Source of the DNA: Nitrospirota bacterium | GTDB lineage: Bacteria; Nitrospirota; Nitrospiria; Nitrospirales; NS-4 | Reading direction: 5' to 3' | NCBI GenBank assembly: GCA_004298335.1 | Contig: SCTG01000101.1 | Span: 1-57,566 of the forward strand | Length of the DNA stretch: 57,566 bases | Part shown: positions 2,640-57,566 of the stretch, piece by piece | How the letters are laid out: each line of letters opens with the position of its first letter | How positions within the stretch are numbered: position 1 is the stretch's first letter | The notes under the pieces: model-generated | Seen by the model: only the letters and a program-made list of their open reading frames with translations | Databases searched by the model: none | What the model was told of the DNA's origin: nothing | Program-made: the position numbers and the translations under genes

Positions 2640-3972
2640 GGCGGAGTTCCTGCCGGCCGTGCTGGAAATCCAGGATGCTCCGCCGTCTCCGGTCGGCCGC
2701 GCCGTCGGTGGCACCATCATGGCCGTCTTTCTTGCCGGTCTCGTATGGTCCTGCATTGGCAAGATCGATATCGTGGCCGTGGCGCCTGGCAAAGTCATTC
2801 CTAGCGGGTATTCGAAGGTGATCCAGTCGTTGGAGGCGGGGGTCATCCGGGCCATTCACGTGAAGGACGGGCAAGCGGTCAAGCAGGGGGAGGTGCTGAT
2901 CGAGTTAGATCCGACCGTGAACACGGCCGAAGGGGCACGCCTGAGCAATGAATACTGGTCGGCGGTGGTCCAGACCGCGCGGTTGCGGGCGCTGATCGCC
3001 GGCAGGGACATGCTCACTGCGCCCCCCCATGCGGACGCGAAGTTTGTGGCTGTGCAACAGCACATGCTGCGCAGCCAATTGGCCGAGCATCAGTCTCGCG
3101 TCGCGGCGGCGCAACATGTGATCAATCAGCGAAAGGCCGCGCTGGCCGCCACCCTGACGAGCATCGCGCACTTGGAAGAGACGGTGCCGATCCAGACCGA
3201 GCGCGCCGTGTCCTTCAAGAAGCTGTTGACGGATGAATATGCGTCCCGAATGGAATACTTGGCGGCCGAAAAGCAGCGTGTGGACGAGGTGAAGGAACTG
3301 GCCAGACAGAAGGACGTATCGAGTCAGGACCGGGCGGCCCTTGCGGAGGCGGAACAGAATTATCGGGTCCTGATCTCAGAATTCCGAAAGAGCCGCCACG
3401 ATGAATTGAACGAACAGGAGATGAAGGCCGCGTCGCTGTTTCAACAGCGTGTCCAGGCCACACAGCGGACGGGCTTGCAGCAGTTGACGGCGTCCATTGA
3501 CGGAAAAGTGCAGCAGCTGGCCGTACACACGCTTGGCGGCGTGGTGACACCGGCCCAGCAGCTGTTGCTGATCGTGCCCGATGAGCAGCATGTGGAAGCC
3601 GAAGTGATGGTGGAGAACAAGGACATCGGGTTTGTGCAGGAGGGCCAACCCGTCGAGATGAAGATCGAGACGTTCCCCTTTACGCGTTACGGCCTCATTG
3701 ACGGCCGGATCGTCAATGTCTCCAATGACGCGGTGCAGGTGGATAAGAGCGGGCAGGTGGTGCCGAGCACGTCGAGCCAGCAAGGGGGCACGTTGGTCTA
3801 TCCGGCGCGGGTGAGTCTGGCGACCGCTGTCATTCAGGTGGAGGGCAAGCCGGTCACGCTCGCGCCCGGCATGGCCGTGACGGCCGAGATCAAGACCGGC
3901 CAGCGCCGGCTGATCGAATTCTTCCTCAGTCCGCTCTTGAAATCGGTACAGGAAACCGCGCGGGAACGCTAG
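2626..3972 (+). CDS. Type I secretion membrane fusion protein (HlyD family)
   Basis: ATG at 2626 (MRLREAEFLPAVLEIQ) overlaps the ABC gene stop by 14 nt. N-terminal TM segment (IMAVFLAGLVWSCIG), long coiled-coil middle, C-terminal HlyD-type barrel (VTAEIKTGQRRLIEFFLSPL). Confidence 0.9.
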   Translation: MRLREAEFLPAVLEIQDAPPSPVGRAVGGTIMAVFLAGLVWSCIGKIDIVAVAPGKVIPSGYSKVIQSLEAGVIRAIHVKDGQAVKQGEVLIELDPTVNTAEGARLSNEYWSAVVQTARLRALIAGRDMLTAPPHADAKFVAVQQHMLRSQLAEHQSRVAAAQHVINQRKAALAATLTSIAHLEETVPIQTERAVSFKKLLTDEYASRMEYLAAEKQRVDEVKELARQKDVSSQDRAALAEAEQNYRVLISEFRKSRHDELNEQEMKAASLFQQRVQATQRTGLQQLTASIDGKVQQLAVHTLGGVVTPAQQLLLIVPDEQHVEAEVMVENKDIGFVQEGQPVEMKIETFPFTRYGLIDGRIVNVSNDAVQVDKSGQVVPSTSSQQGGTLVYPARVSLATAVIQVEGKPVTLAPGMAVTAEIKTGQRRLIEFFLSPLLKSVQETARER

Positions 3973-5275: not shown

Positions 5276-5653
5276 CTACGGTTTCTTTCCGCGCTTGGCC
5301 GGCTTGGTCTCCTTGGCCGACTTGGCGCGGTCCTCTTCTTTGGCGGCCAGGGCTTTTTTCGCCGCGTCCAACTGTGTAGACAAATCCGCCACCTGCTGGT
5401 TCGTTTGTTGAAGTCGCGCCTGGAGGTCCTGCACCTCCTGCTGAACACGCTTCAATTCACTCGAAAGCTTGGCCACATTCGTTTGGGCGGCTTGCAGGGC
5501 TTGCTTGGAGGGTTGACGCTCGGCATCGAGCTTGTTATAGGCCTCCCGCAGCGCGGCGTGCTGGTCCAACGAGACACAGCCCCACAGCGTCGGGGCAGCG
5601 ATGAGCATGACGAACAAAAATCGAAGCACGCGGCAATCTCCAGCCAAACGCAT
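5276..5653 (-). CDS. Coiled-coil lipoprotein with Lys-rich C-terminal tail
   Basis: ATG at 5653 gives MRLAGDCRVLRFLFVMLIAAPTLWGC (lipobox LWGC). Q/L/A-rich heptad-like body and a KETKPAKRGKKP tail. 125 aa. Confidence 0.6.
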   Translation of the reverse strand: MRLAGDCRVLRFLFVMLIAAPTLWGCVSLDQHAALREAYNKLDAERQPSKQALQAAQTNVAKLSSELKRVQQEVQDLQARLQQTNQQVADLSTQLDAAKKALAAKEEDRAKSAKETKPAKRGKKP

Positions 5654-7327: not shown

Positions 7328-7678
7328 TCAGAGCAGCGACTTGACGCTTTCCGGAGGACGCCCCAGGATGGCCTTGTCGTCCGTCTCGATGATCGGGCGC
7401 TGAATCAGTTCAGGATGGATCACCATGAGCTTGATCAAGTCCTCGTCGCTCAGCGTCTTCTCGTCCAATTGCAGTTTCTTGTACGTGTCTTCTTTCGTGC
7501 GGAGCAGATCGCGTGGAGGGATGCCCAGTTTTTGGATCAGCCGGCGGAGCGTCGCCGGGGAAAGCGGTGTCGCGAAATAGTCGATGGTGACGAACTTCGC
7601 TTTGGCTTCACGGAGGAGGGCCAGGGTCTGGCGGCACGTCGAGCAACTCGGTTTCTGATAGACGGTCAGCTTCTCCAT
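7328..7678 (-). CDS. ArsC/Spx/YffB-family thioredoxin-fold protein
   Basis: ATG at 7678: MEKLTVYQKPSCSTCRQTLALLREAKAKFVTIDY...IQRPII, typical of the ArsC (glutaredoxin-type)/Spx family. 116 aa. Confidence 0.8.
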   Translation of the reverse strand: MEKLTVYQKPSCSTCRQTLALLREAKAKFVTIDYFATPLSPATLRRLIQKLGIPPRDLLRTKEDTYKKLQLDEKTLSDEDLIKLMVIHPELIQRPIIETDDKAILGRPPESVKSLL

Positions 7679-7784
7679 AGAATGTCGGTTCCCTTCTTGA
7701 GGTAGGTGTAGCAATGGATGAGACGGCTTGTCAAGCGCGGGCGGAAGTGGTGAAGGACGCCGGAGAGGAGAGGGTGAGGCGCGC

Positions 7785-16903: not shown

Positions 16904-18472
16904 GTGTCGGAGGATGCGATCATTTCCTGGGAGCTCGCCCGTTTCTGCACCGGTCTGTCGCATGAGATCGGCCGGCAGATCGGCGTGCTGATCAACCGCC
17001 GCGGGGCTGTTGAGGACGTGATCGTCGGCAACGACCGCGAGGTTGTGCTGCCGGACCTGTCGGGGTACCGCCTGGGGCGGCGTTCGCTGCGCGGCCTCCG
17101 GCTCGTCCACACGCACCTGCGCGACGAACCGTTGAGCCAGGACGACCTGACCGACCTGGCGCTTCTCCGGCTCGACCTGATGGCGGCTGTCGGCGTCAAG
17201 AGCGACGGCCAGCCGGGCCATCTCTACGCGGCGAATATTCTTCCTCCGAATCAGGCCGGGAGACCCTATGAAATCTGGAAGCCGGTTGTCTTGCAGGACT
17301 GCGACGTGCGCCTGGGGGAATTTCTGCGCGCGCTCGAGGAGGAATTAAGCCGGACCAGGCCGGTGCAGCTGGTGAACGATTTTCAGGAGCAGGCCATTCT
17401 GGTCAGCGTCTCCCGGCAGAGCCTTGCCGACCAGGAAGAGTCCCTTGCGGAGTTGGCCGAGCTGGCGCGCTCCGCGGGGCTGGTGGTCCTGGACCAGGTC
17501 GTGCAGCGGCCGCAAGCGGTGCATGCCAAGTACCTCTTGGGCAGCGGCAAGCTCAAGGAGGTCGTGATCAAGGCGCTTCAGCATGGGGCGGACTTCCTGG
17601 TCTTTGATCAGGACCTCGCGCCGGCTCAGGCCATCGCGATCGCGGAGGTCACGGAGCTCAAGGTCATCGACCGGACGCAATTGATTCTCGATATTTTCAG
17701 CCGGCGGGCGCACAGTCGGGAGGGGAAGATTCGGGTCGAACTGGCCCAGCTGCGCTATCTCCTGCCGCGCCTCACCGGGCACGGCACGGCGATGTCGAGG
17801 CTGGCGGGCGGCATCGGGGGACGCGGCCCCGGCGAGACGAAGCTGGAAGTGGATCGCCGGCGGGTGCGGGACCGGATCACGCATTTCGAGAAGCAAATCG
17901 AGACGCTGGCCAGGAACCGCGCCCAGCAGCGGTCCCGCCGGCTGCGCCGGGAAGTCCCGGTCATCTCGATCGTCGGCTACACGAACGCCGGAAAATCCAC
18001 GCTGCTGAACGTCCTGACCCGCAGCCGGGTCACGGCCCAGGACCGTCTCTTCGATACTCTGGACACGGCCAGCCGCCGCTTGCGGTTCCCGGCGGATCGG
18101 GAGGCGATCGTGACGGATACGGTCGGGTTCATCCGGAACCTCCCGGAGGAGCTGATGGGCGCGTTTCGCGCCACGCTCGAGGAACTGCACGATGCCGACC
18201 TGCTGCTCCATGTTGCCGACATCAGCAGCCCGACGCTGGAGCGGCAGGTGGTGGTCGTGGAGGGTATCTTGAGGGATCTGGGCCTTGATCGAGTCCCCCG
18301 CATCCTGGCCTTGAACAAGGCCGACCGGGTCGATCCGGCCCAGGCGGCCATCCTTAGCGCGCGGCTGGGCGGACTGGCGGTTGCGGCCGTGCGGCCGGAG
18401 ACGCTGATCCCCCTGCTGGAGGCGGTCGAAAAGCGGCTCTGGAGTTTGACCCAGGCCGGCCTTCCCTGCTAA
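16904..18472 (+). CDS. hflX: GTPase HflX (long form with N-terminal extension)
   Basis: GYTNAGKSTLLN (G1), DTVGFI (G3), NKAD (G4), and the HflX N-domain (IDRTQLILDIFSRRAHSREGKIRVELAQL). The first canonical start is GTG at 16904, but coding-like sequence continues upstream to about 16826 (see findings). Confidence 0.9.
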   Translation: MSEDAIISWELARFCTGLSHEIGRQIGVLINRRGAVEDVIVGNDREVVLPDLSGYRLGRRSLRGLRLVHTHLRDEPLSQDDLTDLALLRLDLMAAVGVKSDGQPGHLYAANILPPNQAGRPYEIWKPVVLQDCDVRLGEFLRALEEELSRTRPVQLVNDFQEQAILVSVSRQSLADQEESLAELAELARSAGLVVLDQVVQRPQAVHAKYLLGSGKLKEVVIKALQHGADFLVFDQDLAPAQAIAIAEVTELKVIDRTQLILDIFSRRAHSREGKIRVELAQLRYLLPRLTGHGTAMSRLAGGIGGRGPGETKLEVDRRRVRDRITHFEKQIETLARNRAQQRSRRLRREVPVISIVGYTNAGKSTLLNVLTRSRVTAQDRLFDTLDTASRRLRFPADREAIVTDTVGFIRNLPEELMGAFRATLEELHDADLLLHVADISSPTLERQVVVVEGILRDLGLDRVPRILALNKADRVDPAQAAILSARLGGLAVAAVRPETLIPLLEAVEKRLWSLTQAGLPC

Positions 18473-18473
18473 C

Positions 18474-19136
18474 ATGGCTTGTCTTTTCAAGGCGATGGGT
18501 CGCTCCGTGGACATGGCGAGCCGGCTCCTAAAGCTGCTGAATGAAGAAATCCCAAGCCCGAAGGTGGCGCTCCACCATAAGACACCGTTCCAGCTGCTGG
18601 TGGCCACGATCCTGTCGGCCCAGTGCACGGACGAGCGGGTGAACCAGGTGACCCGGGGATTGTTCGCCAAGTACCGGACGGCGCGGGACTATGCGCAGGC
18701 CGATCCGTCCGATCTTGAGAAGGAGATCCGTTCGACGGGATTCTATAAGGCCAAAACCAGGAGCCTCATTCGTTGCGGGCAGGCTCTGATCGACCGGTTC
18801 GATGGACAGGTTCCCGGGACGATGGACGAACTCGTCACGTTGCCCGGGGTGGGACGCAAGACGGCCAATGTCATCCTCGGCAATTGCTTTGGGGCGCCGG
18901 CGATCGTGGTCGATACGCACGTGAAGCGTGTCTCGCAGCGCTTGGGACTGGCCAAAACGGACGATCCGGAGAAGATCGAAATGGCCCTGCAGCGGCTGTT
19001 GCCGAAAGCCAGTTGGACGAGGGGGTCGCACCAGTTGCTGCTGCACGGGCGGCATGTCTGCCGGGCGCGCGCGCCTCAGTGCCACGCATGCCGGCTCTAC
19101 ATACTGTGTCCCTGGGAAGGAAAACGCCCGGCATGA
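18474..19136 (+). CDS. nth: Endonuclease III (DNA glycosylase/AP lyase)
   Basis: HhH-GPD motif LPGVGRKTANVILG and the [4Fe-4S] cluster loop CRARAPQCHACRLYILC. The start is ATG at 18474 or a downstream Met. Confidence 0.92.
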   Translation: MACLFKAMGRSVDMASRLLKLLNEEIPSPKVALHHKTPFQLLVATILSAQCTDERVNQVTRGLFAKYRTARDYAQADPSDLEKEIRSTGFYKAKTRSLIRCGQALIDRFDGQVPGTMDELVTLPGVGRKTANVILGNCFGAPAIVVDTHVKRVSQRLGLAKTDDPEKIEMALQRLLPKASWTRGSHQLLLHGRHVCRARAPQCHACRLYILCPWEGKRPA

Positions 19137-20026
19137 TCCGAAGCATGACCGGGTACGGCCGGGCCGAAGGACGTCACAAGGGCACGCCGATCACCGTGGA
19201 GATCCGGTCGGTGAACCATCGCCACAGCGAGGTCGTGGCGAAAGTGCCGCGTGCCCTGCAAGCGCACGAGGATCGCATTCGCAATCTGGTCCAGGCGCGC
19301 GTCGCCCGCGGGCGGGTGGATGTGGCGGTGAACTTCAGCGGCGAGCGGGACCCGGGGCGGGGACTCGTGCTGGACCGGGCGCTGGCGCACCGGTATCTGG
19401 ATTTGCTGGAGGAACTGAAGCAGGCGCTTGGCCTGAAGGGAAAGCCCGACGTGGCGCTGCTGGCCGGCTTTCGGGATATCATCAAGCCGGCCGAACTGGC
19501 GGCTGAAGATCCCCAGGCGGTGCGCGCGGCGGAAAAGGTGCTGGAGCAGGCGTTGAAGGCGTTGGATCGCATGCGCCGGCATGAAGGCCGCACGCTGGAG
19601 CGGGACCTGCTGACCCGTCTGCAGGAGAGCGCCGGGCGCCTGCGGGCGATCCGGCTCCGGTTGCCGGCCATCGTGCAGGAACGGCAGGCGCGGTTGCAGG
19701 AACGCGTCAACCGGCTGTTGGAGAGCGCGGGCGGAGGAAAGGACGGGGTGGACCAGGGACGGGTTGCGCAGGAAGTCGCACTACTGGCGGACCGGAGCGA
19801 CGTGAGCGAGGAACTGACCAGGCTGGACAGCCATCTGGACCAGTTCCGGAATTTCCTTCGCAAGTCGGAGCCGGTGGGACGCAGCCTGGATTTTCTGTTG
19901 CAGGAGATGAACCGGGAGGTCAATACGATCGGCTCGAAGGTCGGGGACACGGCCGTGACGCAGGAAATCGTCGCGCTGAAGTCGGAATTCGAAAAAATCC
20001 GTGAGCAGGTGCAGAATGTCGAGTAG
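19133..20026 (+). CDS. yicC: YicC-family stress-induced protein
   Basis: MIRSMTGYGRAEG...VEIRSVNHR N-terminus and C-terminal EMNREVNTIGSK motif. ATGA overlap with the nth stop. Confidence 0.9.
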   Translation: MIRSMTGYGRAEGRHKGTPITVEIRSVNHRHSEVVAKVPRALQAHEDRIRNLVQARVARGRVDVAVNFSGERDPGRGLVLDRALAHRYLDLLEELKQALGLKGKPDVALLAGFRDIIKPAELAAEDPQAVRAAEKVLEQALKALDRMRRHEGRTLERDLLTRLQESAGRLRAIRLRLPAIVQERQARLQERVNRLLESAGGGKDGVDQGRVAQEVALLADRSDVSEELTRLDSHLDQFRNFLRKSEPVGRSLDFLLQEMNREVNTIGSKVGDTAVTQEIVALKSEFEKIREQVQNVE

Positions 20027-20669
20027 CGGGAGGCCCGACAGGCGCCGCCAGGGGACGCTCTTCGTCGTGTCGGCGCCATCCGGGGCCGGCAAGACGTCCC
20101 TGTGCCAGGAACTCGTCGCCCGGCTGCCGGACGTGCGGTACTCGGTCTCATGCACCACGCGCAAGCCGCGGCCCGGCGAGGTCGAGTCCCGGCACTATCA
20201 CTTCGTGGATGAGGCGGCGTTTCGCGGCATGATCAAGGAGGGCGCGTTTCTCGAGTGGGCCGAGGTCTACGGGAATCTCTACGGGACGCCCCGGGCGCCC
20301 ATCCGGGAATGGATTGCGCAGGGGATCGATGTCCTGCTCGACATCGACACGCAGGGCGCATTGCAGATCCGGCGGCATGAACCGGAGGCGGTGTCGATCT
20401 ACATCCTGCCGCCGTCCCTGGAGGTGCTGCGCCGCCGTCTGGAGGACCGCAAGGGGGATTCCCCTGACGAGATCGCCAGGAGGCTGAAAAAGGCAAAAGA
20501 CGAAGTTAAACATTATCATGATTATATGCATGTTGTCATCAACGACGACTTTAAATTTTCAGTTCGTCAACTCGAGGCGATCGTCCTGGCTGAACGGACG
20601 AGAACGGCCGTGCTGGACCTGTCGGTCCTGGAAGGGGATCTGTTGGGGAACGAAGGAGGCATGAATTAA
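20016..20669 (+). CDS. gmk: Guanylate kinase
   Basis: P-loop SAPSGAGKTSL, SCTTRKPRPGE, and YHFV. The ATG at 20016 overlaps the yicC stop. Confidence 0.93.
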   Translation: MSSSGRPDRRRQGTLFVVSAPSGAGKTSLCQELVARLPDVRYSVSCTTRKPRPGEVESRHYHFVDEAAFRGMIKEGAFLEWAEVYGNLYGTPRAPIREWIAQGIDVLLDIDTQGALQIRRHEPEAVSIYILPPSLEVLRRRLEDRKGDSPDEIARRLKKAKDEVKHYHDYMHVVINDDFKFSVRQLEAIVLAERTRTAVLDLSVLEGDLLGNEGGMN

Positions 20670-21031
20670 TGGATGCATTAACACTGTTGCCGGATTATCA
20701 GAAATTGTCCGTTGAATCGCGAAGCCGGCTGGTCATCGTCGCGGCCCAGCGGGCTCGGCAGTTGATGCAGGGCGCCCGCCCTGCGCTGCCGACCAGGCAT
20801 ACCAAGCCCACAACGATTGCGCTGGAGGAAATGCTGAAGGGGAAAATTCACTTCCTCGTCGGCAAAGAGGCTCAAAAGGCCATGAAGGAGGCCCGCAAGC
20901 AACGCGAACGTGAGCTTGAAAAGCTGACCATGGCCCAGGTCGCGGGAGCGGATGCCGCCGAGATCAAGAAGGACCTGAGCGTCGTGGTGGACGACTCTCC
21001 CAAGCCGGCGGAGGCGAGTGAAGACGACTGA
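20669..21031 (+). CDS. rpoZ: DNA-directed RNA polymerase omega subunit
   Basis: SRLVIVAAQRARQLMQGARP core. TAATG overlap with gmk. SD GAAGGAGG 9 nt upstream. Confidence 0.85.
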   Translation: MDALTLLPDYQKLSVESRSRLVIVAAQRARQLMQGARPALPTRHTKPTTIALEEMLKGKIHFLVGKEAQKAMKEARKQRERELEKLTMAQVAGADAAEIKKDLSVVVDDSPKPAEASEDD

Positions 21032-22343
21032 CCGCAACTCCAGGGCGCCGGGCGGGCGCTTTCGGGGGAAGACCATCGTGCTGGGCGTGACGGGGAGCAT
21101 CGCCGCGTACAAGGCGGTGTCGCTCGTGCGCCGTCTCATGGCTGAAGGCGCGGCCGTGCGGGTCGTCATGACGCACAGCGCGCAGCGGTTCGTCGGCCCG
21201 CTGACCTTTGAAGCCGTCACCGGCCACCCGGTCGGTACCGATCTGTTTCCATCGTCCGGTGCAGAGGTGGGTGTGGGAGGGCCGGGTACCCGCCTTGCGG
21301 GTGGAGACGCGGGGCCCCCTCCCACTACGATGGTCATGCCGCATCTCGCGCTGGCGGACTCGGCCGACCTGATCGCGATCGCGCCCGCGTCGGCCCATTG
21401 CGTGGCGAAACTGGCGCACGGACTCGCCGATGACCTGCTCTCCACGCTGGCGCTGGCGGCGGAGTGTCCGATGGTGGTGGCGCCGGCCATGGATGGCGGC
21501 ATGTGGACCCACCCGGCGGTGCGCGACAATGTCTTGACGCTCAGGCGACGCGGCGTCACCGTGCTGGAGCCCGAGACGGGGCCGCTGGCCTCCGGGCAAA
21601 CCGGCAAGGGACGCCTTCCGGAAGAAAACGCGATCCTGTCGGCGATCGCGGGCGCGCTGCATCCGGTGAAGGATTTCAGGGGCCGGCGCGTGCTCGTCAC
21701 GGCCGGGCCGACACAGGAGGCGCTCGACCCCGTCCGGTTCATCTCGAACCGCTCCTCCGGGAAGATGGGCTGGGCGCTTGCCGAAGCCGCGCGCGATCGG
21801 GGAGCCGAGGTGGTCCTGGTTGCGGGTCCCACCGCCCTCCCGCCGGTTTCCAACGTGACCGTCGTGCCGGTCGTGACCTCCGAGGACATGCGGAAGGAAG
21901 TGAGCGCCCGGTTTCTGGGCGCCGATGTTCTCATCATGGCCGCGGCGGTCGCCGACTTCAGGCCCGCCGGGCCTGCCCGCGGAAAAATTCCGAAGGGCCG
22001 CGGGCCGCGGGCGCTGACGCTCGAGCCGACCCCGGACATCCTGATGGATCTGCCGCCGCGCCGGGCCGGCCGGCTCGTCGTGGGCTTTGCGGCCGAGACC
22101 GGCGATCTGGTCGAGCGCGCCCGGGCCAAGCTGCGCCGGAAGGCGCTGGATCTGATCGTGGCCAACGACGTCACGGAGCCGGGGGCCGGGTTCGGCACCG
22201 ACACGAACCGGGCGACCCTGATCGATCGGGCGGGCCGCTGCGATGCGCTGCCGCTCATGTCCAAGCTGGACCTGGCGCATCGGATCCTCGACGCTGTTCT
22301 GGAACTTCCGACTGACCGGCTGCAGAAGGGAGGGACCGACTAA
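21018..22343 (+). CDS. coaBC: Bifunctional phosphopantothenoylcysteine decarboxylase / phosphopantothenate-cysteine ligase
   Basis: GKTIVLGVTGSIAAYK flavoprotein N-domain, PAMDGGMW, and CoaB domain VTAGPTQEALDPVRFISNRSSGKMG. It carries a 21-aa insert encoded by the 63-bp repeat at 21264-21326. Confidence 0.93.
   Translation: MKTTDRNSRAPGGRFRGKTIVLGVTGSIAAYKAVSLVRRLMAEGAAVRVVMTHSAQRFVGPLTFEAVTGHPVGTDLFPSSGAEVGVGGPGTRLAGGDAGPPPTTMVMPHLALADSADLIAIAPASAHCVAKLAHGLADDLLSTLALAAECPMVVAPAMDGGMWTHPAVRDNVLTLRRRGVTVLEPETGPLASGQTGKGRLPEENAILSAIAGALHPVKDFRGRRVLVTAGPTQEALDPVRFISNRSSGKMGWALAEAARDRGAEVVLVAGPTALPPVSNVTVVPVVTSEDMRKEVSARFLGADVLIMAAAVADFRPAGPARGKIPKGRGPRALTLEPTPDILMDLPPRRAGRLVVGFAAETGDLVERARAKLRRKALDLIVANDVTEPGAGFGTDTNRATLIDRAGRCDALPLMSKLDLAHRILDAVLELPTDRLQKGGTD
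21264..21326 (+). repeat. 63-bp palindromic repeat element, copy A, in-frame inside coaBC
   Basis: GAGGTGGGTGTGGGAGGGCCGGGTACCCGCCTTGCGGGTGGAGACGCGGGGCCCCCTCCCACT. 59/63 identical to the reverse complement of 44791-44853. Outer stem GTGGGAGGG/CCCTCCCAC and inner stem ACCCGC-CTT-GCGGGT. Confidence 0.85.
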
Positions 22344-27074: not shown

Positions 27075-27881
27075 TCACTTGCTGCTGACCCAGACCGCCG
27101 CCAGCCCGTCGGCAAAACTGCGCGCTTCCCCGAACTGCGGCTTGATGACGGTCTTCCCGGACTTGTCGATGTAGCCCCATTTGCCGCCGATCTCGACGAG
27201 GGCCAGTCCGTCGGAGGGCGGGGCGGCCCTGTCGAATTGCAACGGGATGACGAGCTTGCCCGTCGTGTCGATGTAGCCCCACTTGCCGCTCATGTCTCTC
27301 ACCGGCGCCAGCCCTTCCGAGAAGCGCTTGGCCCACCCGAACTGCGGCTTGACGGCGAATTTTCCGGTCTGGTCGATATAGCCCCACTTGCCGTTGAAGT
27401 ATTCCACCGGCGCCAGACCTTCGGAGAAGGGGCCGGCGTCTTCAAATTGCGGCGGGATGGCGATCTTCCCGGTCTTGTCGATAAAGCCGATCTTCGAGCC
27501 GAAGCCGTCCTTGACGTCGATCCTGATCGCGGCCAAGGGTTCGGTGAGCGTGTCGGACGACTTGTAGATGATCTTGACCTCCTCGAACTGCGGCGGGATG
27601 GTGACCTTCCCCGTCTTGTCGATGTAGCCCCACTTGCCGTCCTTGCTGATCGCCGCCAGCCCTGCGATAAACGGGCCGGCATCGTCGAACTGCGGCGGGA
27701 TGGCGAACTTCCCCGTCTTGTCGATGTAGCCGACGGTCAATTTCTCGTCTTTCGGATTTTTGGCCTCCTCGGCTTTCGAGCAGCCGACGCCAAGGAGTAA
27801 AAGAACGACCAGGGCGAAGCGGCCCGGAGATCCGAGCGCCGCGGTCGCGGCGAACTGTCGTGTCGTGGTCATGGTGGTCAT
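27075..27881 (-). CDS. WG-repeat (KWG-type) lipoprotein
   Basis: ATG at 27881 with SD AAGGAAGG. Signal peptide plus lipobox LLLLGVGC. About eight repeats of GKWGYIDKTGKxxIPPQFxxAxxFSEGLA. Confidence 0.85.
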   Translation of the reverse strand: MTTMTTTRQFAATAALGSPGRFALVVLLLLGVGCSKAEEAKNPKDEKLTVGYIDKTGKFAIPPQFDDAGPFIAGLAAISKDGKWGYIDKTGKVTIPPQFEEVKIIYKSSDTLTEPLAAIRIDVKDGFGSKIGFIDKTGKIAIPPQFEDAGPFSEGLAPVEYFNGKWGYIDQTGKFAVKPQFGWAKRFSEGLAPVRDMSGKWGYIDTTGKLVIPLQFDRAAPPSDGLALVEIGGKWGYIDKSGKTVIKPQFGEARSFADGLAAVWVSSK

Positions 27882-35536: not shown

Positions 35537-37045
<1,509 letters not shown>

Positions 37046-37056
37046 GATTTCACGGC

Positions 37057-37085
37057 ATCATAGTCAGCGGGATGGGGCAAGTCAA
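37057..37085 (-). promoter_or_regulatory. Candidate internal sigma70-like promoter, TTGACT-17-TATGAT, directly upstream of lysS
   Basis: On the minus strand, TTGACT is at 37085-37080 and TATGAT at 37062-37057. Only 11 nt separate the -10 from the lysS ATG (37045), and there is no SD. Confidence 0.35.
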
Positions 37086-37102
37086 TTTGAGTGGGAGGGG
37101 CA

Positions 37103-44026: not shown

Positions 44027-47000
44027 ATGCTCACTGTCGTCACCGGCCCGTTCCATCCTGATCTCGAAGCCGCCCTCGTCTCGCAAGTCCGATCGCTGAA
44101 ACAGGGCGACCCGCTCGCGCCGCTGGCGATCGTCGTGCCTTCGGCGCAGCTCGCCCGGCGCGTCAAGTGGCTGCTGGCCGTCGAGCAGGGCCTCGCGCTC
44201 CTCGACGTCCATGTCCTGACCTTCCACGATCTTGCCAAGACACTGATCAAAGAAAGCCGGGCGGACCAGCCGGCCGGCGCGGACGGAATCCTCCGGGAGG
44301 AATTGCTGCGCTGCCTCGTCGCGCGGGGCGTGCCCGGCTCAGAAGCCTTCCGCGACTGGGCGAAGATGCGGGGCCTGTGGGGCGGCCTGTGGGCGACCAT
44401 CCAGGACTTGAAGGAGGCGCGGGTGGACCCCGCGTCCGTCCTGTCGGCGGTCGGGGAGAAGCTGTTCGGCTCCGAAGATCCGGAGCGTCTGGCCGCATTG
44501 TTCCGCCTGTACGCCGCCGTCCTGTCGACCGACCGCGATCTCCGCATCGCCGATCCGGACGACCTCGCCACCCTTGCGGTGGAGCAGATTCCGGGATCGA
44601 CGTTTCTCGCGCGGATGCGCCTGGTCTGCTACTACGGGTTTTACGATCTCACGCAGGGGCAGCTCGACCTGTTCAAGGGTGTGGCATCCGCCTGTCCGGC
44701 GATCGTCCTCTTTCCGCTGCGGCGGGAGAGTCCGTCCTATCGGTTCGCGCAGCGGTTCTTTGAAGCCTATATTCAGGGCATGGCCCTGAGAGTGGAAGGG
44801 GGCCCGGCGTCTCCACCCGCAAAGCGGGCACCCGGCCCTCCCACACCCACCTCGTCATCCCTGACCGACGAGATCGCTCCGGCGGTGCGGGGGAATTGCC
44901 GCATCATCAGTACGGTCGGCCCCGAGGATGAAGTGTCAACGGCGGCCAAGGAGATCCTCCGGCTCATTGAAGACCAGGGATTCAATCCGATGGAGATCGG
45001 CGTCGTGGCACGGACGCTGGATTCCTACCTTCCCGTCGTGCGCCGGGTCTTCGAGGAGAACCAAGTGCCGTTTGCCTGCCCGGTGGGAGAGCCGCTTATC
45101 CACGAGCCGCTGGCGAAGACGATCATCCGGTTTCTCCGGCTGCGCGTCGAATCCTTCCCGCGCGCGTCCGTCCTGGACGTAGTGACATCTCCAGTCTTCC
45201 GGCTCGCCTCCATCTTAGTTGAAGGGGGGGGCGAGCTAAACCCGGCGGCTCATCCGGATCAATGGGAATGGATCACGCGGGGGCTGGGGATCACCAGGGG
45301 CGATCCGGCCGATGGGAGTCTCGGCGAATGGCGGCGGCTTGAGCGCGCGATCCAGCCGAGCCTCGAACGGTCCGACAATGGCGATGAGAAGACCGATCCC
45401 GGACAGGCACTGGTGACGAAACAGATGCGCCTGCTCTGGGCGCTCGTGCAGAAGCTCCACGCCGACCTGTCGTCGCTGCCCGCCCGCGCGAGCTGGGGCG
45501 AGTACACGGAACAGTTCGTCCGCCTGCTGCCGAAGTATTTCGATCTGCCGGCCTGGAGCGACGCGCAGCAGGCCGCCCATGACGAGTCTGTGCAGGCGGC
45601 GATCCGCGGATGTCTGGATTCCGTCAAAAAGTTGGAGGTGCTGGGCGAGGAGGTCTCCCTCAAAGACTGGACCGACCTGATGGTCCGGGCGTTGGAGCGC
45701 GCGCGACTGCTGTCGGAGACGCACCAGCAGGCGGGCGTGCAGGTCCTCGACGCCATGGGTGCGCGGGGAGTGCCCTTTCGCGCCCTGTTTGTCCTCGGCC
45801 TCAACGAAAAAGTTTTTCCCCGCTCGATCCGCGAGGATGCGTTGCTGCGCGACGCCGACCGGGAGGTGCTGGCCCGCGATCTCGGTTTCAAAATTCCGCT
45901 CAAGCTGGACGGGTTCGAGGAAGAGCGGCTGTTGTTCGCGCTGCTGCTCCGATCCGCGAAAGAGCGGCTCTCTCTCAGCTATCAGCGCGCCGACCGCGCG
46001 GGCCGGACGCTGGTGCCTTCGGGGTACCTCATCGAGCTTCAGCGCGAGATGGGGAGCGAGCGGGAACGAAGGATCAAACGGCGGCCGAGCGAGCGGTGGG
46101 CCGAGTGGCCCTACGAGCCCCTGCTCCTGACCGCGCGCGAGATGGGTCTGCACATGATCCTGCGCGACGGGTCGGTTCGCGCCGCCTGGCACGCGCTGTA
46201 CGCCGAGCCGGAGTTGCTGGCGCAGGGAGTGAGCGCGCTGCAGGGACTGGAATCGGCGAAAGCCGGCCTGACGCCATATGACGGGCTGGTCGGTCCGGTC
46301 GCGTCCCATTGGGGCATGCTGGAACGTCGCGGCGCGGCGCCGACCTCGCTGGAGCGCTACGCGCAGTGCCCCTTCCGGTACTTCGCCGAGCGGGTGCTCA
46401 AGCTGCAGCCGCTGGAGGCGCCGGAGTCCGTGGTGGAACTCGACGCCCGTTCGCGCGGCGAACTCTGCCATGCCATGCTGCGCGCCTTCCACGAGCGGCT
46501 GAAGCGGGACGGCCGGCCCATTGCCGAAGTGAGTACCGACGACGCGGTGCGCCTGCTGGCCGACGTCGCGCCACAAGTTTTTGCCGAATACGAGGAGGAC
46601 AACTGGGTGGGCTATCCGCTCCTGTGGGCGCTGGCGCGGGAGGAGGTCCTGTGGCTCGTCGAACAGCTTGTACGGGAGGACCTCCGGGAACTGCGGCTGA
46701 GCGGCTACGTCCCCACGCTGTTCGAAGTCGAAGCCAAGGGCCGGTTCGACTCGAACCTGCCGGCTCCGCTGCAAGCGATCCCGGTCCGGGGAATCCTGGA
46801 TCGCGTGGATGCGCGGAAGGACAACGGGCGCACCGTCCTCCGTGTCGTGGACTACAAGTACACGCAGGCGCCGGTGTTGAAGGACCGGGACCTGGCGACG
46901 GCCGCACTGCGGGGATTCCGTCTCCAGCCGCCGCTCTATCTCCTGGCGGCGAAAGAGGTGCTGGGAGAGCCGGCCGTGCCGGAGTCCGCCGCCTTTTATT

Positions 47001-47344
47001 TCCTCGCGCCCAACCGGCGGGACGGGCCGGTGGACCGGAGCCAGCTGGATGCGTCTTGCTGGGCGGGTGAATCTGGCGTGCGTCTCGGACGCACGCTGAC
47101 GCTCATCCTGGACGGCATCAGGGCCGGCCGATTCTTCATCCTGCCGGGCGGCCACTGCGACCACTGCGAGTACTCCGAGGTCTGCCGCCGCCATCACAAT
47201 CAAAGCTGGTGGCGCGCGCGCGGCGACGAGTCCCGCAAGGCGCTCGAGGGCCTGCACGCGCTGAAGGCGCCCAAGGCCGACGCGAAGACGGAGAATGCGG
47301 AGGCGGGGACGGGCAAGAAGGAAAGGAAGAAGCGCGGTGGCTGA
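44027..47344 (+). CDS. addB: AddB-type helicase-nuclease subunit (PD-(D/E)XK nuclease with Fe-S staple)
   Basis: 1105 aa. C-terminal nuclease with YAQCPFRYF, GILDRVD, VVDYKY and CDHCEYSEVC (four Cys iron staple). Overlaps addA by 8 nt. Contains the 63-bp repeat (21-aa insert). Confidence 0.85.
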   Translation: MLTVVTGPFHPDLEAALVSQVRSLKQGDPLAPLAIVVPSAQLARRVKWLLAVEQGLALLDVHVLTFHDLAKTLIKESRADQPAGADGILREELLRCLVARGVPGSEAFRDWAKMRGLWGGLWATIQDLKEARVDPASVLSAVGEKLFGSEDPERLAALFRLYAAVLSTDRDLRIADPDDLATLAVEQIPGSTFLARMRLVCYYGFYDLTQGQLDLFKGVASACPAIVLFPLRRESPSYRFAQRFFEAYIQGMALRVEGGPASPPAKRAPGPPTPTSSSLTDEIAPAVRGNCRIISTVGPEDEVSTAAKEILRLIEDQGFNPMEIGVVARTLDSYLPVVRRVFEENQVPFACPVGEPLIHEPLAKTIIRFLRLRVESFPRASVLDVVTSPVFRLASILVEGGGELNPAAHPDQWEWITRGLGITRGDPADGSLGEWRRLERAIQPSLERSDNGDEKTDPGQALVTKQMRLLWALVQKLHADLSSLPARASWGEYTEQFVRLLPKYFDLPAWSDAQQAAHDESVQAAIRGCLDSVKKLEVLGEEVSLKDWTDLMVRALERARLLSETHQQAGVQVLDAMGARGVPFRALFVLGLNEKVFPRSIREDALLRDADREVLARDLGFKIPLKLDGFEEERLLFALLLRSAKERLSLSYQRADRAGRTLVPSGYLIELQREMGSERERRIKRRPSERWAEWPYEPLLLTAREMGLHMILRDGSVRAAWHALYAEPELLAQGVSALQGLESAKAGLTPYDGLVGPVASHWGMLERRGAAPTSLERYAQCPFRYFAERVLKLQPLEAPESVVELDARSRGELCHAMLRAFHERLKRDGRPIAEVSTDDAVRLLADVAPQVFAEYEEDNWVGYPLLWALAREEVLWLVEQLVREDLRELRLSGYVPTLFEVEAKGRFDSNLPAPLQAIPVRGILDRVDARKDNGRTVLRVVDYKYTQAPVLKDRDLATAALRGFRLQPPLYLLAAKEVLGEPAVPESAAFYFLAPNRRDGPVDRSQLDASCWAGESGVRLGRTLTLILDGIRAGRFFILPGGHCDHCEYSEVCRRHHNQSWWRARGDESRKALEGLHALKAPKADAKTENAEAGTGKKERKKRGG
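44791..44853 (-). repeat. 63-bp palindromic repeat element, copy B, in-frame inside addB in inverted orientation relative to copy A
   Basis: The reverse complement is 59/63 identical to 21264-21326. It is translated here as ...VEGGPASPPAKRAPGPPTPTS... Confidence 0.85.
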
Positions 47345-50300: not shown

Positions 50301-50693
50301 TGGATCTCGGAAGAGCTCAAGGGGAAGTCTGCGGAGATAGTCAAGGAGGCCCGCGCTGTGCTGGAGACCTTTGCACAATCGGAAGCCTGTGCCGAATTGC
50401 GCGACGCCACGATTCTGGGACGCGAGGTACCGTTCATGATGAAGTGGCCGGGGCCTCCTCCAACTATGATGGAAGGGCGCATTGACCTGCTCTATGAAAA
50501 GGATGGCGGGTTGTGGGTGGCGGATTACAAGACGGACCGCATTACCGAGGCCGAGGTGGCCGGGCGCATGGAAACCTACCGGCCGCAGGCCGAAGTCTAT
50601 ACGAAAGCCGTCAGGCAAGCGTTCGGGCACAGCCCCGCTGGGTTCAAGTTTATCTTTCTCCGGCTGGGCAAGAGCGTGCCGCTTCCGCTATAG
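47337..50693 (+). CDS. addA: AddA-type UvrD/Rep helicase-nuclease subunit
   Basis: GTG at 47337. Walker A AGAGTGKTT, DEFQDTDP, FIVGDPKQSIFAFRRAD, HKAKGLEFP, LLYVGMTRAK, and C-terminal PD-(D/E)XK (RIDLLYEKDGGLWVADYKTD). Confidence 0.9.
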   Translation: MAEIRDAQARTLAETTFDRNVAVTAGAGTGKTTLLVERLVHLIVKSPDPVPVPEIVALTFMIKAANEIKIRLQERLLELATRPGDATDLLERYRLSSSELAARAAAAVLDVERSQIGTIHSFAAHLLRLYPVEAGVDPGFEPDEGVGFEEHFQREWERWLDDELGAGGRRHDVWRRVLRRVAVTELREFARALVKDLVPLEDLAEQVRDPSLSPSLRTWLQEKRARANELSTAYLKEEKAPRQVEKLLAAARSCFDLVLARGAPGIKLLDGETAALLDEKNPGSKPPVGWDKRDFDEAGRIIQTARAVLRTDHEYFRDALAILGPFAESCRRRFLEAGSVTFDGLLARARDLLRDHPGIRERLKHHFKAILVDEFQDTDPVQYEIMLFLCERPGRSASDWQDVQMEPGKLFIVGDPKQSIFAFRRADIEAFQEVTARVLAQGGLPLTLTTNFRSHASILATVNGLFGRLLAEGRGPQPPYHALDPQPDRRTGAGTQGVALRLVAPDHDDEESEDLNAPQAVRAEAEALARWLKSEVIGKEVLTNRDGPPRKVEPGDVALLFRTFTQSRDYLEALRRHGLSYVAEGEKHFYRRQEVIDLVNLLRCVRHPDDQVALAGLLRSALGALTDRELAELVALRALDYRNGGPPELDRHPRALHLRRLYAALESLHRDCPMKPLPDALDLIFARLPVLELAAASLHGEQAAANLWKIRDLSEDLAADPDMTLAGFVELLAARIADPPEETESGLAEESLEAVRVLSIHKAKGLEFPIVVLVGMHAGTLSQRDPIQVLHDWSTGVAGIRLGPTGTLGGLFASEKLEARTVAEQRRLLYVGMTRAKERLVLSGALTGRSSTGNFLSLLRDIIGEDVGSRAVAELSVGEGRIAQVVLPADEGRPRERAAKERAIQSADDLPGFESRSRARAERWTQCREQPTCLTPSGLEESPQRISTAVTPACAMAVGNLVHKMLEIVSYRDKAYVMLEELDRSAVRWISEELKGKSAEIVKEARAVLETFAQSEACAELRDATILGREVPFMMKWPGPPPTMMEGRIDLLYEKDGGLWVADYKTDRITEAEVAGRMETYRPQAEVYTKAVRQAFGHSPAGFKFIFLRLGKSVPLPL

Positions 50694-55148: not shown

Positions 55149-57566
55149 AGATTTTCTTTGTCGCGTGCGTGCTGGCGCTTGTCGTGACGGCGGGCTGCGA
55201 CTTCAAGCTCACGCCGAAGAGGCCGGTTGCCGATCTTCCGCCTCCCGCAAGCTCGGAAAAAACCAACGAGCTGGTCGAGCTCAACCGAAAGGTGCAGGAA
55301 CTCCAGCAGGACGGACGATATGCCGAGGCGATTCCGCCCGCGCAGCGGGCCGCCGAGCTGTACGAGCAGCACCTGGGGCCCGAGCATCCCTATACGGCCA
55401 CGGCGGTGACGACCCTGGCGGAGCTCTACCGCGCGAACGGGGAGTACGCCAAGGCAGAGCCGCTGTTCCAGCAGGTGCTGGCCGTCCGTGAAAAAACGCT
55501 CGGGACCGGCCACCCCGACGTGGCGGAGGTGCTGAACGCTCTGGGGCTTTTGTATGCCGCCGCCGGCGACTACGCTAAGGCCGAGCCCACGTACCGGCGC
55601 GCGCTGGCCATCCGGGAAAACGCCCAGGGGGGCGGCCATCCCGACGTGGCGACCGCTCTGAACAATCTGGCGTTGCTGTACGATGCGACCGGCAATCCCA
55701 CCAGGGCCGAACCGCTCTATCAGCAGGCGCTGGCCATTCGCGAGCAGGCGCTCGGCCGCGAGCACCCGCTCGTCGCAGTCGTGCTGAACAACCTGGCCGT
55801 GTCGCTCGACGCGACCGGCAGTCCCGCCAAGGCCGAGCCCCTGCACCAGCAGGCGCTGGCCATCCGCGAGAAAGCGTTCGGGCCGAACCATCCCGATGTG
55901 GCCGCGTCGCTGAACAACCTGGCGGATCTGTACCGCGTCGGCGGCAACTTCAAGAAAGCCGAGCCCCTGTATCAGCGGGCGCTGGCCATTCGCGAGCGGG
56001 CGCTCGGCCCCGGACACCCCGATGTCGCGACGACGCTGCACAACCTCGCGGAGCTGTACCGTGCGAATGGGAACGGCGGCAAAGCCGAGCCCCTGTATCA
56101 GCGGGCGCTGGCCATCCGCGAGCAGGCGCTCGGCCCCGAGCACCCGAAAACCGCCGCCACGCTCGGCAGCCTGGGCGCGTTGTATGCGGGCAGGGGCGAC
56201 TTCGCAAAGGCGGAGTCCGCGTACCGGCGGGCGCTGGCCATCCGGGAGAAGGCGAAGGGCGCCGACCACCCGGATGTCGCCGTCGCGGCCGGCGATCTGG
56301 CGGCGCTCTATAAAAAAGCCGGGGACTACGGGCAGGCGGAACCCCTGTATCGCCGGGCGCTCAGGATTCAGGAAAAGGCGCTCGGCCCCACCCATCGCAA
56401 TTTGGTGGCGCCGCTCACCAACCTGGCGTCGCTGTATGAAGCCGCCGGGAACTACGAGAAGGCGGAGCCGCTGTACCAACGGGTGCTGGAGATTCACGAG
56501 AAGGTGTTCGGCTCCGAGCATCCCAAGGTGGCGGCCGACCTGAGCAACCTCGGCTCGCTGTCCGCCGCCCTCGGGAATACCGGGAAGGCCGAATCTTTTT
56601 ACCGTCGGGCGCTGGACGTGCGCGAGAAAGTCCTCGGCACCGGCCATCCCAGCGTCGCGACCGAACTGAATAACCTGGCCGCGCTCTATCGCGAGAGAGG
56701 AGACCGCGCGAAGGCGGAGTCCCTGGTGAAACAGGCGCTGGAGATCGATGAGCTATCGCTCGGCCCCAACCATCCCAACGTGGCGACCGACCTGAGCAAC
56801 CTGGCTGCGCTCTATCGCGATGCGGGGAACGATGCGCGGGCGAAGCCGCTGTTGCGGCGGGCGTTGACGATCGATGAGGCCGCGCTCGGGCCGGCCCATC
56901 CCACGACGGCGGCCTCGCTCTATAACCTGGCGCAGTTGTACCAGTCCATGGGGGAGAGCGCGAGCGCGACGCCGCTGTTCCGCCGCGCGCTCGCGATCCA
57001 GGAACAGACATGGGGATCCGGCCATCCGGAGACGGTGGACGCGCTCGGCAGCCTCGTTGCGGTCTATAAGGCCGCCGGGGAGTTCGCGAAGGCCGAACCG
57101 CTGGCCCGGAGGCTGCTGCTGATCAGGGAGAAGACCGTCGGTCCCGACCATCCCGCGGTGGCGCAGGCGCTCATCATGCTCGCGGGGCTTGCCGCCTCGC
57201 AGCAGCACTATCAGGAGGCGGCCGGCCTGTTCAAGCGGGGGCTTGCGCTCCAGGAGAAACAGCTTCGAAACGGCGTTTCCGTTCTGGAGGACGCGCAACG
57301 GCCGGCGCCCGTCCGTTCCCTGTCCGGAGACCTGTTCATGTCCCTCTCGCTGATCCAGCAGCACCTGAAGGGGGATCCGGGTGCGGCACGGGACGGGCTG
57401 GAACTGGTGTTGCGCCGCAAGAAGGCCGGCCTGGACGCGGAGTTCTGGGCCAGCGAGGAGATGCGGGACCGGTTGCCCGCGGAGGCCGGGCGCGAGTGGC
57501 GGGAGCTCGAGGCGGCGCGCGGCGAACTAGCGCGGCTCGTCCGTCACAAGCCGGGGCGGATGGGCT
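55145..57566 (+). CDS. Lipoprotein with ~15 TPR (TPR_12-like, 42-aa) repeats, 3'-truncated by the window; probably the N-terminal part of a TPR-CHAT-type protein
   Basis: Not in the supplied ORF track because there is no stop in the window. GTG at 55145: VKIFFVACVLALVVTAGC (lipobox), then repeats of AEPLYQRALAIREKALGPxHPDVATxLNNLAxLY. I checked the frame by hand at 55145, 55955 and 56621. The tail (LELVLRRKKAGLDAEF...) resembles pre-CHAT regions, from memory. Confidence 0.85.
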   Translation, partial: MKIFFVACVLALVVTAGCDFKLTPKRPVADLPPPASSEKTNELVELNRKVQELQQDGRYAEAIPPAQRAAELYEQHLGPEHPYTATAVTTLAELYRANGEYAKAEPLFQQVLAVREKTLGTGHPDVAEVLNALGLLYAAAGDYAKAEPTYRRALAIRENAQGGGHPDVATALNNLALLYDATGNPTRAEPLYQQALAIREQALGREHPLVAVVLNNLAVSLDATGSPAKAEPLHQQALAIREKAFGPNHPDVAASLNNLADLYRVGGNFKKAEPLYQRALAIRERALGPGHPDVATTLHNLAELYRANGNGGKAEPLYQRALAIREQALGPEHPKTAATLGSLGALYAGRGDFAKAESAYRRALAIREKAKGADHPDVAVAAGDLAALYKKAGDYGQAEPLYRRALRIQEKALGPTHRNLVAPLTNLASLYEAAGNYEKAEPLYQRVLEIHEKVFGSEHPKVAADLSNLGSLSAALGNTGKAESFYRRALDVREKVLGTGHPSVATELNNLAALYRERGDRAKAESLVKQALEIDELSLGPNHPNVATDLSNLAALYRDAGNDARAKPLLRRALTIDEAALGPAHPTTAASLYNLAQLYQSMGESASATPLFRRALAIQEQTWGSGHPETVDALGSLVAVYKAAGEFAKAEPLARRLLLIREKTVGPDHPAVAQALIMLAGLAASQQHYQEAAGLFKRGLALQEKQLRNGVSVLEDAQRPAPVRSLSGDLFMSLSLIQQHLKGDPGAARDGLELVLRRKKAGLDAEFWASEEMRDRLPAEAGREWRELEAARGELARLVRHKPGRMG

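Follow-up and report, generated by a model that had tools for sequence, protein, structure and literature searches.

The coaBC Locus and Its Repeat Copy

The stretch of DNA analyzed here, hereafter the window, comprises 57,566 nt from a Nitrospirota bacterium of the Nitrospirales (assembly GCA_004298335.1, contig SCTG01000101.1). Positions 21018–22343 of its plus strand correspond to coaBC, an intact open reading frame (ORF) of 441 aa, the product of which was identified by Pfam and by hundreds of homologues as a phosphopantothenoylcysteine decarboxylase/phosphopantothenate-cysteine ligase. The Flavoprotein domain spans residues 18–210, and the DFP domain residues 221–402. This gene includes, in frame, a copy of a palindromic repeat (positions 21264–21326, plus strand) that encodes EVGVGGPGTRLAGGDAGPPPT. 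The copy belongs to the 57-nt core class, the family pattern fitting positions 21269–21325. An initial annotation of the window had proposed that the segment is an in-frame selfish repeat resembling the Rickettsia palindromic elements (RPE), a proposal which is supported by the copy number, the in-frame sites and the comparison of alleles described in the following sections. With respect to the host gene itself, it begins with GTG before rpoZ ends, the two genes sharing 14 nt (positions 21018–21031), and an overlap of the same length is found in the gene calls of the relatives L004, L084, L085, and L086.

The coaBC copy is identical at 59 of its 63 bases to the reverse complement of window positions 44791–44853, which confirms that the repeat pair first noticed is real. 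The second copy, also of the 57-nt class, lies on the minus strand, in frame and in opposite orientation within a gene encoding an AddB-like helicase-nuclease subunit (positions 44027–47344, plus strand; 1105 aa), where it is read as VEGGPASPPAKRAPGPPTPT. Pfam domain PDDEXK_1 was detected in this ORF (1.4e-33), while ADDB_N scored 26.0 bits, slightly below the cut-off of 26.6. The left edge of the similarity between both copies is sharp; towards the right, a weaker likeness extends to 77 nt, 68 of which are identical. None of the shuffled versions of the window yielded a match as good as this pair.

As initially described, the element starts on a codon boundary of coaBC, and this holds in the 441-aa ORF. 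Its length had been given as 63 nt, that is, 21 codons. A copy of that length is present and in frame, but when the DNA of the loop was compared with that of L084, which has an empty allele, and with those of L086 and L004, the whole insertion turned out to be 78 nt long (positions 21258–21335, plus strand), corresponding to 26 codons that read GAEVGVGGPGTRLAGGDAGPPPTTMV. The span conserved in the family, from approximately position 21266 to 21333, is likewise larger than 63 nt. Several components can be recognized on the plus strand. A GT dinucleotide that the flank profile shows to be invariant in the family (positions 21267–21268) lies 5′ of the left arm of an outer stem, GTGGGAGGG (positions 21273–21281), which is supported by the predicted fold and by pair covariation. 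It is followed by an inner hairpin, ACCCGC-CTT-GCGGGT (positions 21288–21302), by the right arm of the outer stem, CCCTCCCAC (positions 21317–21325; fold, pattern, and covariation) and by a conserved 3′ tail, TACGATGG (positions 21326–21333), that fits the family consensus T-N-N-R-A-T-N-G. Judging from the fold and from the comparison of classes, only the 57-nt class has this inner hairpin, to which the inner stem of the 66-nt class is related. The nested palindrome that had been described was thus recovered, outer and inner stems being both present in the predicted folds. We also found, in agreement with the initial annotation, that the 63-mer is free of stop codons in all six frames. This is weak, non-discriminating evidence, as 14% of all 63-nt segments of the window, the G+C content of which is 65%, are open in all six frames as well.

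An exact-protein look-up with RpoZ led to an independent Logan assembly (SRR8426595; L095) that is 100% identical to window positions 18169–22127, element included. The corresponding look-up with CoaBC gave no match, probably because the start codon had been called differently. Since the independent identical assembly carries the element, and many genomes contain the family, we rejected an assembly artefact as the origin of the coaBC insert. An intein, an intron or a translational bypass is also unlikely: splicing motifs are lacking, the open frame continues in phase through the element, and the peptides encoded in the frames used are benign.

A Repeat Family of the Nitrospirales

The constant ends of the CoaBC loop variants (see below) correspond to the stem arms, and for this reason the family was searched for with a two-arm degenerate pattern, GGGTGYGGGAGGG-N(9-39)-GGGCCCCCTYCYRC, in one genome per GTDB species. 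We obtained 84 exact matches in 79 stretches belonging to 23 assemblies, with up to 11 matches per metagenome-assembled genome (MAG); by our own estimate, about 2 matches to this pattern are expected by chance. When up to two mismatches per arm were allowed, 91 matches were obtained in the loci and none in the reversed sequences. All stretches but one (78/79) are labelled Nitrospirales, Nitrospirae, or Nitrospira. The remaining match lies on a 4.2-kb contig (L076, DASPXY010001234.1) of a Gemmataceae MAG. The flanks of its element are identical to those found at the corresponding membrane-protein site in the Nitrospirae contigs L058 and L011 and, judging from this sequence likeness, the contig is probably misbinned.

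Most cores are 36 nt (37 copies), 39 nt (27 copies), or 66 nt (12 copies) long, accompanied by cores of 40 nt (5 copies) and 57 nt (3 copies) and by single copies of 37 and 38 nt. The four main sizes, 36, 39, 57, and 66 nt, are each divisible by three. Of the three 57-nt copies in the GTDB scan, two are those of the window; 8 further loci were obtained when metagenomes were scanned for the 57-nt core. Most of the copies found in these searches are intragenic and in frame, as detailed below. When the window was scanned with Rfam 15, nothing reached the gathering threshold anywhere, and the element gave matches at chance level (E ≥ 0.3).

Among the loci with 57-nt cores, L090 contains two adjoining paralogous genes, each with a copy (positions 5441–5470 and 7675–7704) at the same near-N-terminal position (MTPSGNTQAVHGNVTSQVGTGGPGTRFAGGDAGPPPAINVSL...), and L089 and L091 to L094 show the same paired arrangement. 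The element was evidently duplicated along with the gene. The left arm of these copies has GGGTAC in place of GGGTGY.

Hairpin Structure and Ends of the Element

For site statistics, a non-redundant set of 63 unique sites was used. The element consists of the invariant GT, followed by GGGT, a G-rich outer stem of 10 bp (consensus GYGGGAGGGG, pairing with CCCCTCCCRC), a variable inner module that sets the core size at 36, 39, 57, or 66 nt, and the 3′ tail. In the 5′ flank, G is present at position −2 in 62 of the 63 sites and T at position −1 in all of them, with a purine before them. The 3′ flank has T at +1 in 51 sites, A at +5 in 47 and G at +8 in 51, which corresponds to T-N-N-R-A-T-N-G. 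The two ends, GT and T-N-N-R-A-T-N-G, thus differ, and the element is asymmetric.

Covariation was used as the test of the hairpin in place of thermodynamic z-scores. The latter are weak (−1.3 to −2.2), since a sequence of such high G+C content folds well however it is shuffled. In the 39-nt class, the 10-bp outer helix and a 4-bp inner helix have 98.6% of their cells paired. The inner helix, which is not constrained by the search pattern, shows compensatory changes in all four of its pairs, and the Y/R pair of the outer stem, also free in the pattern, is U-A in 15 cases and C-G in 5, with no mismatch. The observed covariation score was reached by none of 500 shuffles. With respect to target-site duplications, none had been seen at coaBC; a search with k = 2–9 nt at any offset found none across the 63 sites either, the best z-score being 2.95 among approximately 780 tests.

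These features bear on a possible origin of the family as a classical miniature inverted-repeat transposable element, that is, a deletion derivative of an insertion sequence moved, either by cut-and-paste or by copy-and-paste, by a DDE transposase that reads the stem arms as terminal inverted repeats. The outer arms, of 10–13 bp, formally qualify as terminal inverted repeats, the size of the element (46–78 bp) would be suitable and the copies are dispersed and vary in presence and absence. Against this stand the asymmetric ends, the lack of any 2–9 bp target-site duplication at any offset, and the covariation of the inner helix, which a DDE transposase does not require. Moreover, the loci, which extend up to 8 kb around the matches, showed no parent insertion sequence with such ends. 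We therefore consider an origin of this kind very unlikely.

Most Copies Lie in Frame within Unrelated Genes

To call a site intragenic, codon-usage log-odds were trained on Pfam-verified genes of the loci, and a best-scoring single open frame on both flanks was required. An earlier and stricter codon-score threshold misclassified Pfam-verified hosts and was dropped in favor of this best-frame rule. By the codon-usage test, 35 of the 63 sites are intragenic and in frame. Six additional sites (in Lhr, MazG, and a repeat protein) fail the rule solely on account of neighboring copies or composition; they are intragenic according to Pfam or to a long ORF and bring the total to approximately 41 of 63. 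The remaining sites, about 22, lie at gene ends or in spacers, so that the intragenic share amounts to 56–65% of the unique sites.

Four of the six reading frames are used in the 35 sites: E2 in 20, R0 in 10, R2 in 3, and R1 in 2, while E0 and E1 do not occur. Frame E2 reads VG[VA]GG...GPP[PS][TA], and the opposite-strand frame R0 reads VGGGPA...PPTPT. These two favored frames encode solely Gly, Pro, Ala, Val, Ser, and Thr. In two of the other frames, the tail of the element introduces stops.

The genes hit are diverse. Pfam-confirmed hosts, with domains around the insert or on both sides of it, include PriA_C, Methyltransf_28, Peptidase_S58, OpuAC, SQS_PSY, MacB_PCD, AnmK, and Pur_DNA_glyco. 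Further Pfam-confirmed hosts are CarA, where the copy lies in the inter-domain linker, MazG, a secretin, an FAD-oxidase, CCG, and SLT. The list is completed by Lhr, by AddA and AddB at two sites each and by a class II ribonucleotide reductase with an intein.

Two of these cases deserve description on their own. In the Lhr helicase genes of L033 (positions 2634–2780) and L056 (positions ~3595–3760), tandem or nested copies lie between WH_Lhr and DEAD_assoc. The L033 gene has two 66-nt-class copies arranged head to tail; in that of L056, a copy is interrupted by, or adjoins, other copies. Tandem or nested copies also occur in AddA and in a repeat protein. In L078, a 36-nt-class copy (positions ~2586–2621) is located in the LAGLIDADG region of the intein of the class II ribonucleotide reductase, and thus represents a selfish element within a selfish element.

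The diversity of hosts bears as well on whether the similarity between coaBC and addB could reflect a local event, either gene conversion between the two genes or convergence upon a Gly/Pro-rich linker, with no repeat family being involved. Both inserts do encode Gly/Pro-rich low-complexity loop peptides. However, the two copies are opposite in orientation and encode different peptides, yet their DNA is 94% identical; what is conserved is the nucleotide sequence, not the peptide, and the 84 strict family matches are spread over dozens of unrelated genes and intergenic spacers. The census, the size classes and the in-frame hosts refute local gene conversion or a shared linker. Gene conversion of a motif common to CoaBC and AddB, which the initial annotation had named as the scenario contrary to its own proposal, is excluded by the occurrence of copies in both orientations, in four frames and between genes. 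We consider a local event practically impossible.

Occupancy and Turnover of the Sites

CoaBC homologues with 76–88% identity show graded states at exactly the loop that bears the insert. The loop may be empty (DLFESS-MPHL, DLFAPDAG-LPHL), may include the right part alone (NAPPTKMVMPHL) or the left part alone (AEVGVGGGGVMPHL), or may harbor a short full form (EVGVGGASAGPPPTK) or a long form with a different middle (EVGVGGARVPVAPSNATGDGPPPTR). At the DNA level, L084 has an empty allele, in which LFESS is directly followed by MPH, L086 retains the right arm alone, and L004 the left arm alone. Close relatives without the insert or with half of it do therefore exist, a point that bears out the reading of the segment as an insertion. 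Across at least 8 genomes, this coaBC codon site is occupied by copies of the 36-, 39-, 57-, or 66-nt class. In a neighbor-joining tree of CoaBC calculated with the loop masked, the element is absent from the outgroups; within the crown clade, sequences with an empty loop, a left or a right solo arm, or a full copy are interspersed, and sisters often differ. The nearest neighbor of the window sequence has an empty allele. The coaBC site is old and shared, and other species have other size classes there; the insertion is not a recent private one. Turnover at this site is frequent, as close relatives have empty or half-deleted sites.

A similar situation was encountered elsewhere in the window. 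The AddB codon position of the second copy is occupied in four genomes, with 36- or 39-nt-class copies in L015, L043, and L066. The metagenome contig L087, which is syntenic with the window over 22.9–33.1 kb at 72–85% identity, has a 57-nt-class copy in its trpF-trpB spacer; the window spacer is 18 nt long and has none.

Apart from the coaBC and addB copies, no further copies were found in the window at up to three mismatches per arm. A scan with single arms at one mismatch gave 19 matches versus 24 in the reversed-sequence control, that is, no excess, and remnants are reported here where orthology supports them. Two of them sit where relatives have full copies. A decayed remnant consisting of the right arm and tail, GCCCCCCCCCTTCAACTAAGATGG, lies at a second AddB site (positions 45210–45232, minus strand); the orthologous position has a full 36-nt-class copy in L015 and a partial one in L043. 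In the AddA-like gene, the identity of which was confirmed by Pfam, a solo right arm with tail, GGGCCTCCTCCAACTATGATGG (positions 50451–50472, plus strand), is read as GPPPTMM and falls in the C-terminal nuclease domain. A full 39-nt-class copy occupies this position in L008, and a solo arm followed by a full copy does so in L066.

Two right-arm-like motifs found in the arm scan, CCCCTCCCACT and CCCCATCCCGCT (positions 37057–37100, minus strand), are tentatively regarded as intergenic remnants; no orthologous full copy was seen for them. They are located upstream of lysS (positions 35537–37045, minus strand; confirmed by Pfam). A promoter-like sequence, TTGACT-17-TATGAT (positions 37057–37085, minus strand; 10/12 match, 0/50 shuffles), lies directly upstream of lysS and overlaps both motifs. 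The tail of the element, T-N-N-R-A-T, resembles a −10 hexamer, and it may be speculated that copies create promoters.

At the old shared sites that they occupy, the two window copies are both of the 57-nt class, a class rarely encountered in the reference genomes. As far as two copies allow, this points to replacement or gene conversion within the genome. A hairpin element that homes to its sites is a related possibility: it would re-enter the same loops beside its own remnants and swap its inner module by means of a single-strand DNA enzyme, or else would double as a genome-maintenance signal enriched in repair genes. Such behavior would explain the four size classes at one coaBC codon and the presence of the rare 57-nt class at both window sites; nevertheless, we regard it as unlikely.

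Predicted Effect on the CoaBC Protein

That the insert occupies a surface loop, as the initial annotation had supposed, agrees with both the structural alignment and the model. Upon alignment to the CoaBC structure of M. smegmatis (PDB 6TGV), residues 79–106 of the window protein replace 4 loop residues, and the insert directly precedes the His of the conserved MPHL motif. An AlphaFold2 model of CoaBC built with 79 homologues has a mean predicted local distance difference test score (pLDDT) of 87.3 and a predicted template modeling score of 0.84. Residues ~74–107 are modeled as coil with pLDDT values of 50–58, with values above 90 on both sides, and the insert is the sole low-confidence part of the model. 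The residues that are invariant in the family of CoaBC proteins are retained. The gene product thus looks functional in the model, with an added disordered loop, and the inserted peptide appears to lie in a loop that is compatible with the fold. The insert would be translated as a loop of about 26 residues, and the tryptic peptide that spans it would be LAGGDAGPPPTTMVMPHLALADSADLIAIAPASAHCVAK.

Other Repeats in the Window

Two other repetitive regions were noticed. In positions 55407–56966, a unit of 126 nt (42 codons) is directly repeated in tandem about 10 times or more, with 61–67% mutual identity; the region probably encodes a repeat-domain protein. Positions 27081–27741 include 5–6 direct repeats, 60–77% identical, with a period of 102–105 nt (34–35 codons); translated from the minus strand, these look like KWGYIDK-type beta-propeller repeats.

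A Probable Selfish Hairpin Family Filtered by Selection

Taken together, we consider it likely that the coaBC insert is one copy of a dispersed, non-autonomous, selfish hairpin family of uncultured Nitrospirales, similar to the repetitive extragenic palindromes (REP) and to RPE. The family would be restricted to a clade of uncultured Nitrospirales that are mostly from soil and groundwater, and its copies would land both between and inside genes. The intragenic copies that survive would be those that add a whole number of codons without a stop, that are read in frames giving a flexible peptide of Gly, Pro, Ala, Val, Ser, and Thr, and that are placed in surface loops or inter-domain linkers. Intragenic copies would accordingly represent selfish DNA filtered by purifying selection. 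In coaBC, the element would be read as a disordered loop of approximately 26 residues located before the catalytic His of MPHL, the fold being kept. Sites would persist across species while their content changes by deletion of one arm, by re-insertion beside remnants and by replacement with the current subfamily. We infer that the copies are selfish rather than functional.

A functional role has nevertheless to be weighed. The repeats could be DNA or RNA signals of the host kept under selection, such as a site for a nucleoid or repair protein, a Chi- or uptake-like signal, or a structured mRNA element, the in-frame form being the way in which a signal of this kind can exist within genes. Compensatory changes maintain the hairpin, the ends are invariant, and the same loops are occupied in many species. 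Furthermore, a noticeable share of the hosts are replication and repair genes: AddA (2 sites), AddB (2 sites), PriA, UvrC, Lhr, methylpurine glycosylase, and ribonucleotide reductase; a similar bias has been noted for intragenic REPs (PMC3733652). On the other hand, sister genomes vary freely at the same site, where the element may be present, absent, or half-deleted, and copies decay to solo arms. Copies in either orientation with respect to the host gene are common, and this speaks against a function in mRNA. The repair genes hit encode very long proteins and hence are large targets, and intrastrand repair can keep the symmetry of a palindrome in the absence of function. On balance, a host function appears quite improbable.

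Several points weigh against the interpretation of the repeats as a selfish mobile family. Both the covariation of the hairpin and the fact that many species have the same sites occupied might reflect such a host function rather than pure selfishness. Recent transposition, that is, identical flanks with and without the element, was not observed among the genomes compared, which are at least 15% diverged. The intragenic share does not reach the coding density of genomes of this type, which means that insertion into genes is tolerated, not preferred. The counts given above derive from a strict pattern applied to incomplete MAGs and are not true per-genome copy numbers. Finally, neither a transposase nor another mobilizing gene was found; a tblastn search with an IS200-type transposase, a weak test that covered 725 kb of genome fragments, gave nothing.

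With respect to how a selfish hairpin family would move, we tentatively suggest, as a possibility short of an even chance, a trans-acting HUH/Y1 enzyme, RAYT- or IS200/IS605-like, which would recognize the single-stranded hairpin together with the adjacent invariant GT. Gene conversion between copies would follow such recognition. This mode is favored because of the covariation of the hairpin, the end tags, the lack of duplications and the head-to-tail arrays.

The occurrence of selfish repeats in frame is textbook knowledge for Rickettsia, and for REPs there have been sporadic observations of it. The behavior is now found in free-living, GC-rich, and environmentally abundant Nitrospirales, with a very compact element. 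The family provides natural experiments on the tolerance of proteins to loop insertions, a single codon of an essential enzyme being represented by empty, half-deleted, and full alleles of four sizes, and it offers a clean case for the study of the movement of hairpin repeats and of their homogenization within genomes. For annotation and binning, the element serves as a marker of the lineage and is a possible cause of assembly breaks, and it has probably exposed one misbinned contig. In addition, the inserts inflate the apparent protein divergence in these MAGs.

Comparison with Known Repeat Systems

The initial annotation considered in-frame palindromic repeats as undescribed for this kind of genome. 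This holds for the lineage, inasmuch as our literature search found no description of such repeats for Nitrospira or Nitrospirales; it does not hold in general, since intragenic REP-like repeats are known outside Rickettsia (PMC3733652). Di Nocera et al. (2013; PMC3733652) had already described in-frame intragenic REPs, often in replication or repair genes, for free-living bacteria, among them Opitutus and Xanthomonas.

The closest comparison in behavior was drawn with the ten RPE families, RPE-1 to RPE-10 (Ogata et al., 2000, as summarized in PMC10969869 and PMC3733652). Both RPE and the Nitrospirales element are dispersed palindromic families with many copies in frame in unrelated housekeeping genes that are not destroyed. 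The inserted peptide is placed in loops compatible with the fold in RPE and, by prediction, in the CoaBC copy; in both families no transposase is known and copies decay in place. They differ in that the Nitrospirales hosts are free-living and have a G+C content of 60–65%, whereas RPE hosts are AT-rich, obligate intracellular Rickettsia. The Nitrospirales element is also smaller (cores of 36–66 nt and insertions of ~46–78 nt versus ~100–150 bp for RPE), is GC-rich and has modular inner hairpins that give rise to discrete size classes. The end motifs differ as well: RPE-4 and RPE-6 end in CGTC (PMC3733652), which is absent from the Nitrospirales element, RPE being compared here by description.

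With REPs (GTAG and CGTC superfamilies, PMC3733652; REPIN/RAYT, PMC3116915) the element shares the nature of a short, GC-rich, imperfect palindrome (20–40 nt in REPs), a tag outside the stem and a tail at the opposite end. The lack of a target-site duplication, the tandem clusters and, in some REP families, the in-frame intragenic copies, often in replication or repair genes, are further points in common. Unlike REPs, the Nitrospirales element has neither a GTAG nor a CGTC tag, its ends being R-G-T placed immediately before GGGT, and T-N-N-R-A-T-N-G. Its sites are 56–65% intragenic rather than predominantly extragenic; for GTAG repeats, the intragenic share is “slightly more than 10%” (PMC3733652). 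No inverted REPIN doublets were found among the matches, some of which are instead arranged in head-to-tail tandems. Neither a RAYT nor an IS200-like TnpA gene was detected in the 725 kb of loci, a weak search that covered the loci rather than whole genomes.

As regards the way it works, the element can be compared with the IS200/IS605 family (IS608, ISDra2; PMC6006769). Hairpins define the ends in both cases, there is no target-site duplication, and an invariant short sequence, a possible target or cleavage motif, is found immediately 5′ of the element. Unlike these insertion sequences, the Nitrospirales element is a single hairpin over its whole length, instead of having separate hairpins at the left and right ends, and has no coding capacity; the same weak IS200-type search of the 725 kb of loci identified no TnpA for it. 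From these comparisons, the Nitrospirales element lies outside the RPE and REP sequence families, and its behavior is new for the Nitrospirales lineage, not new in kind.

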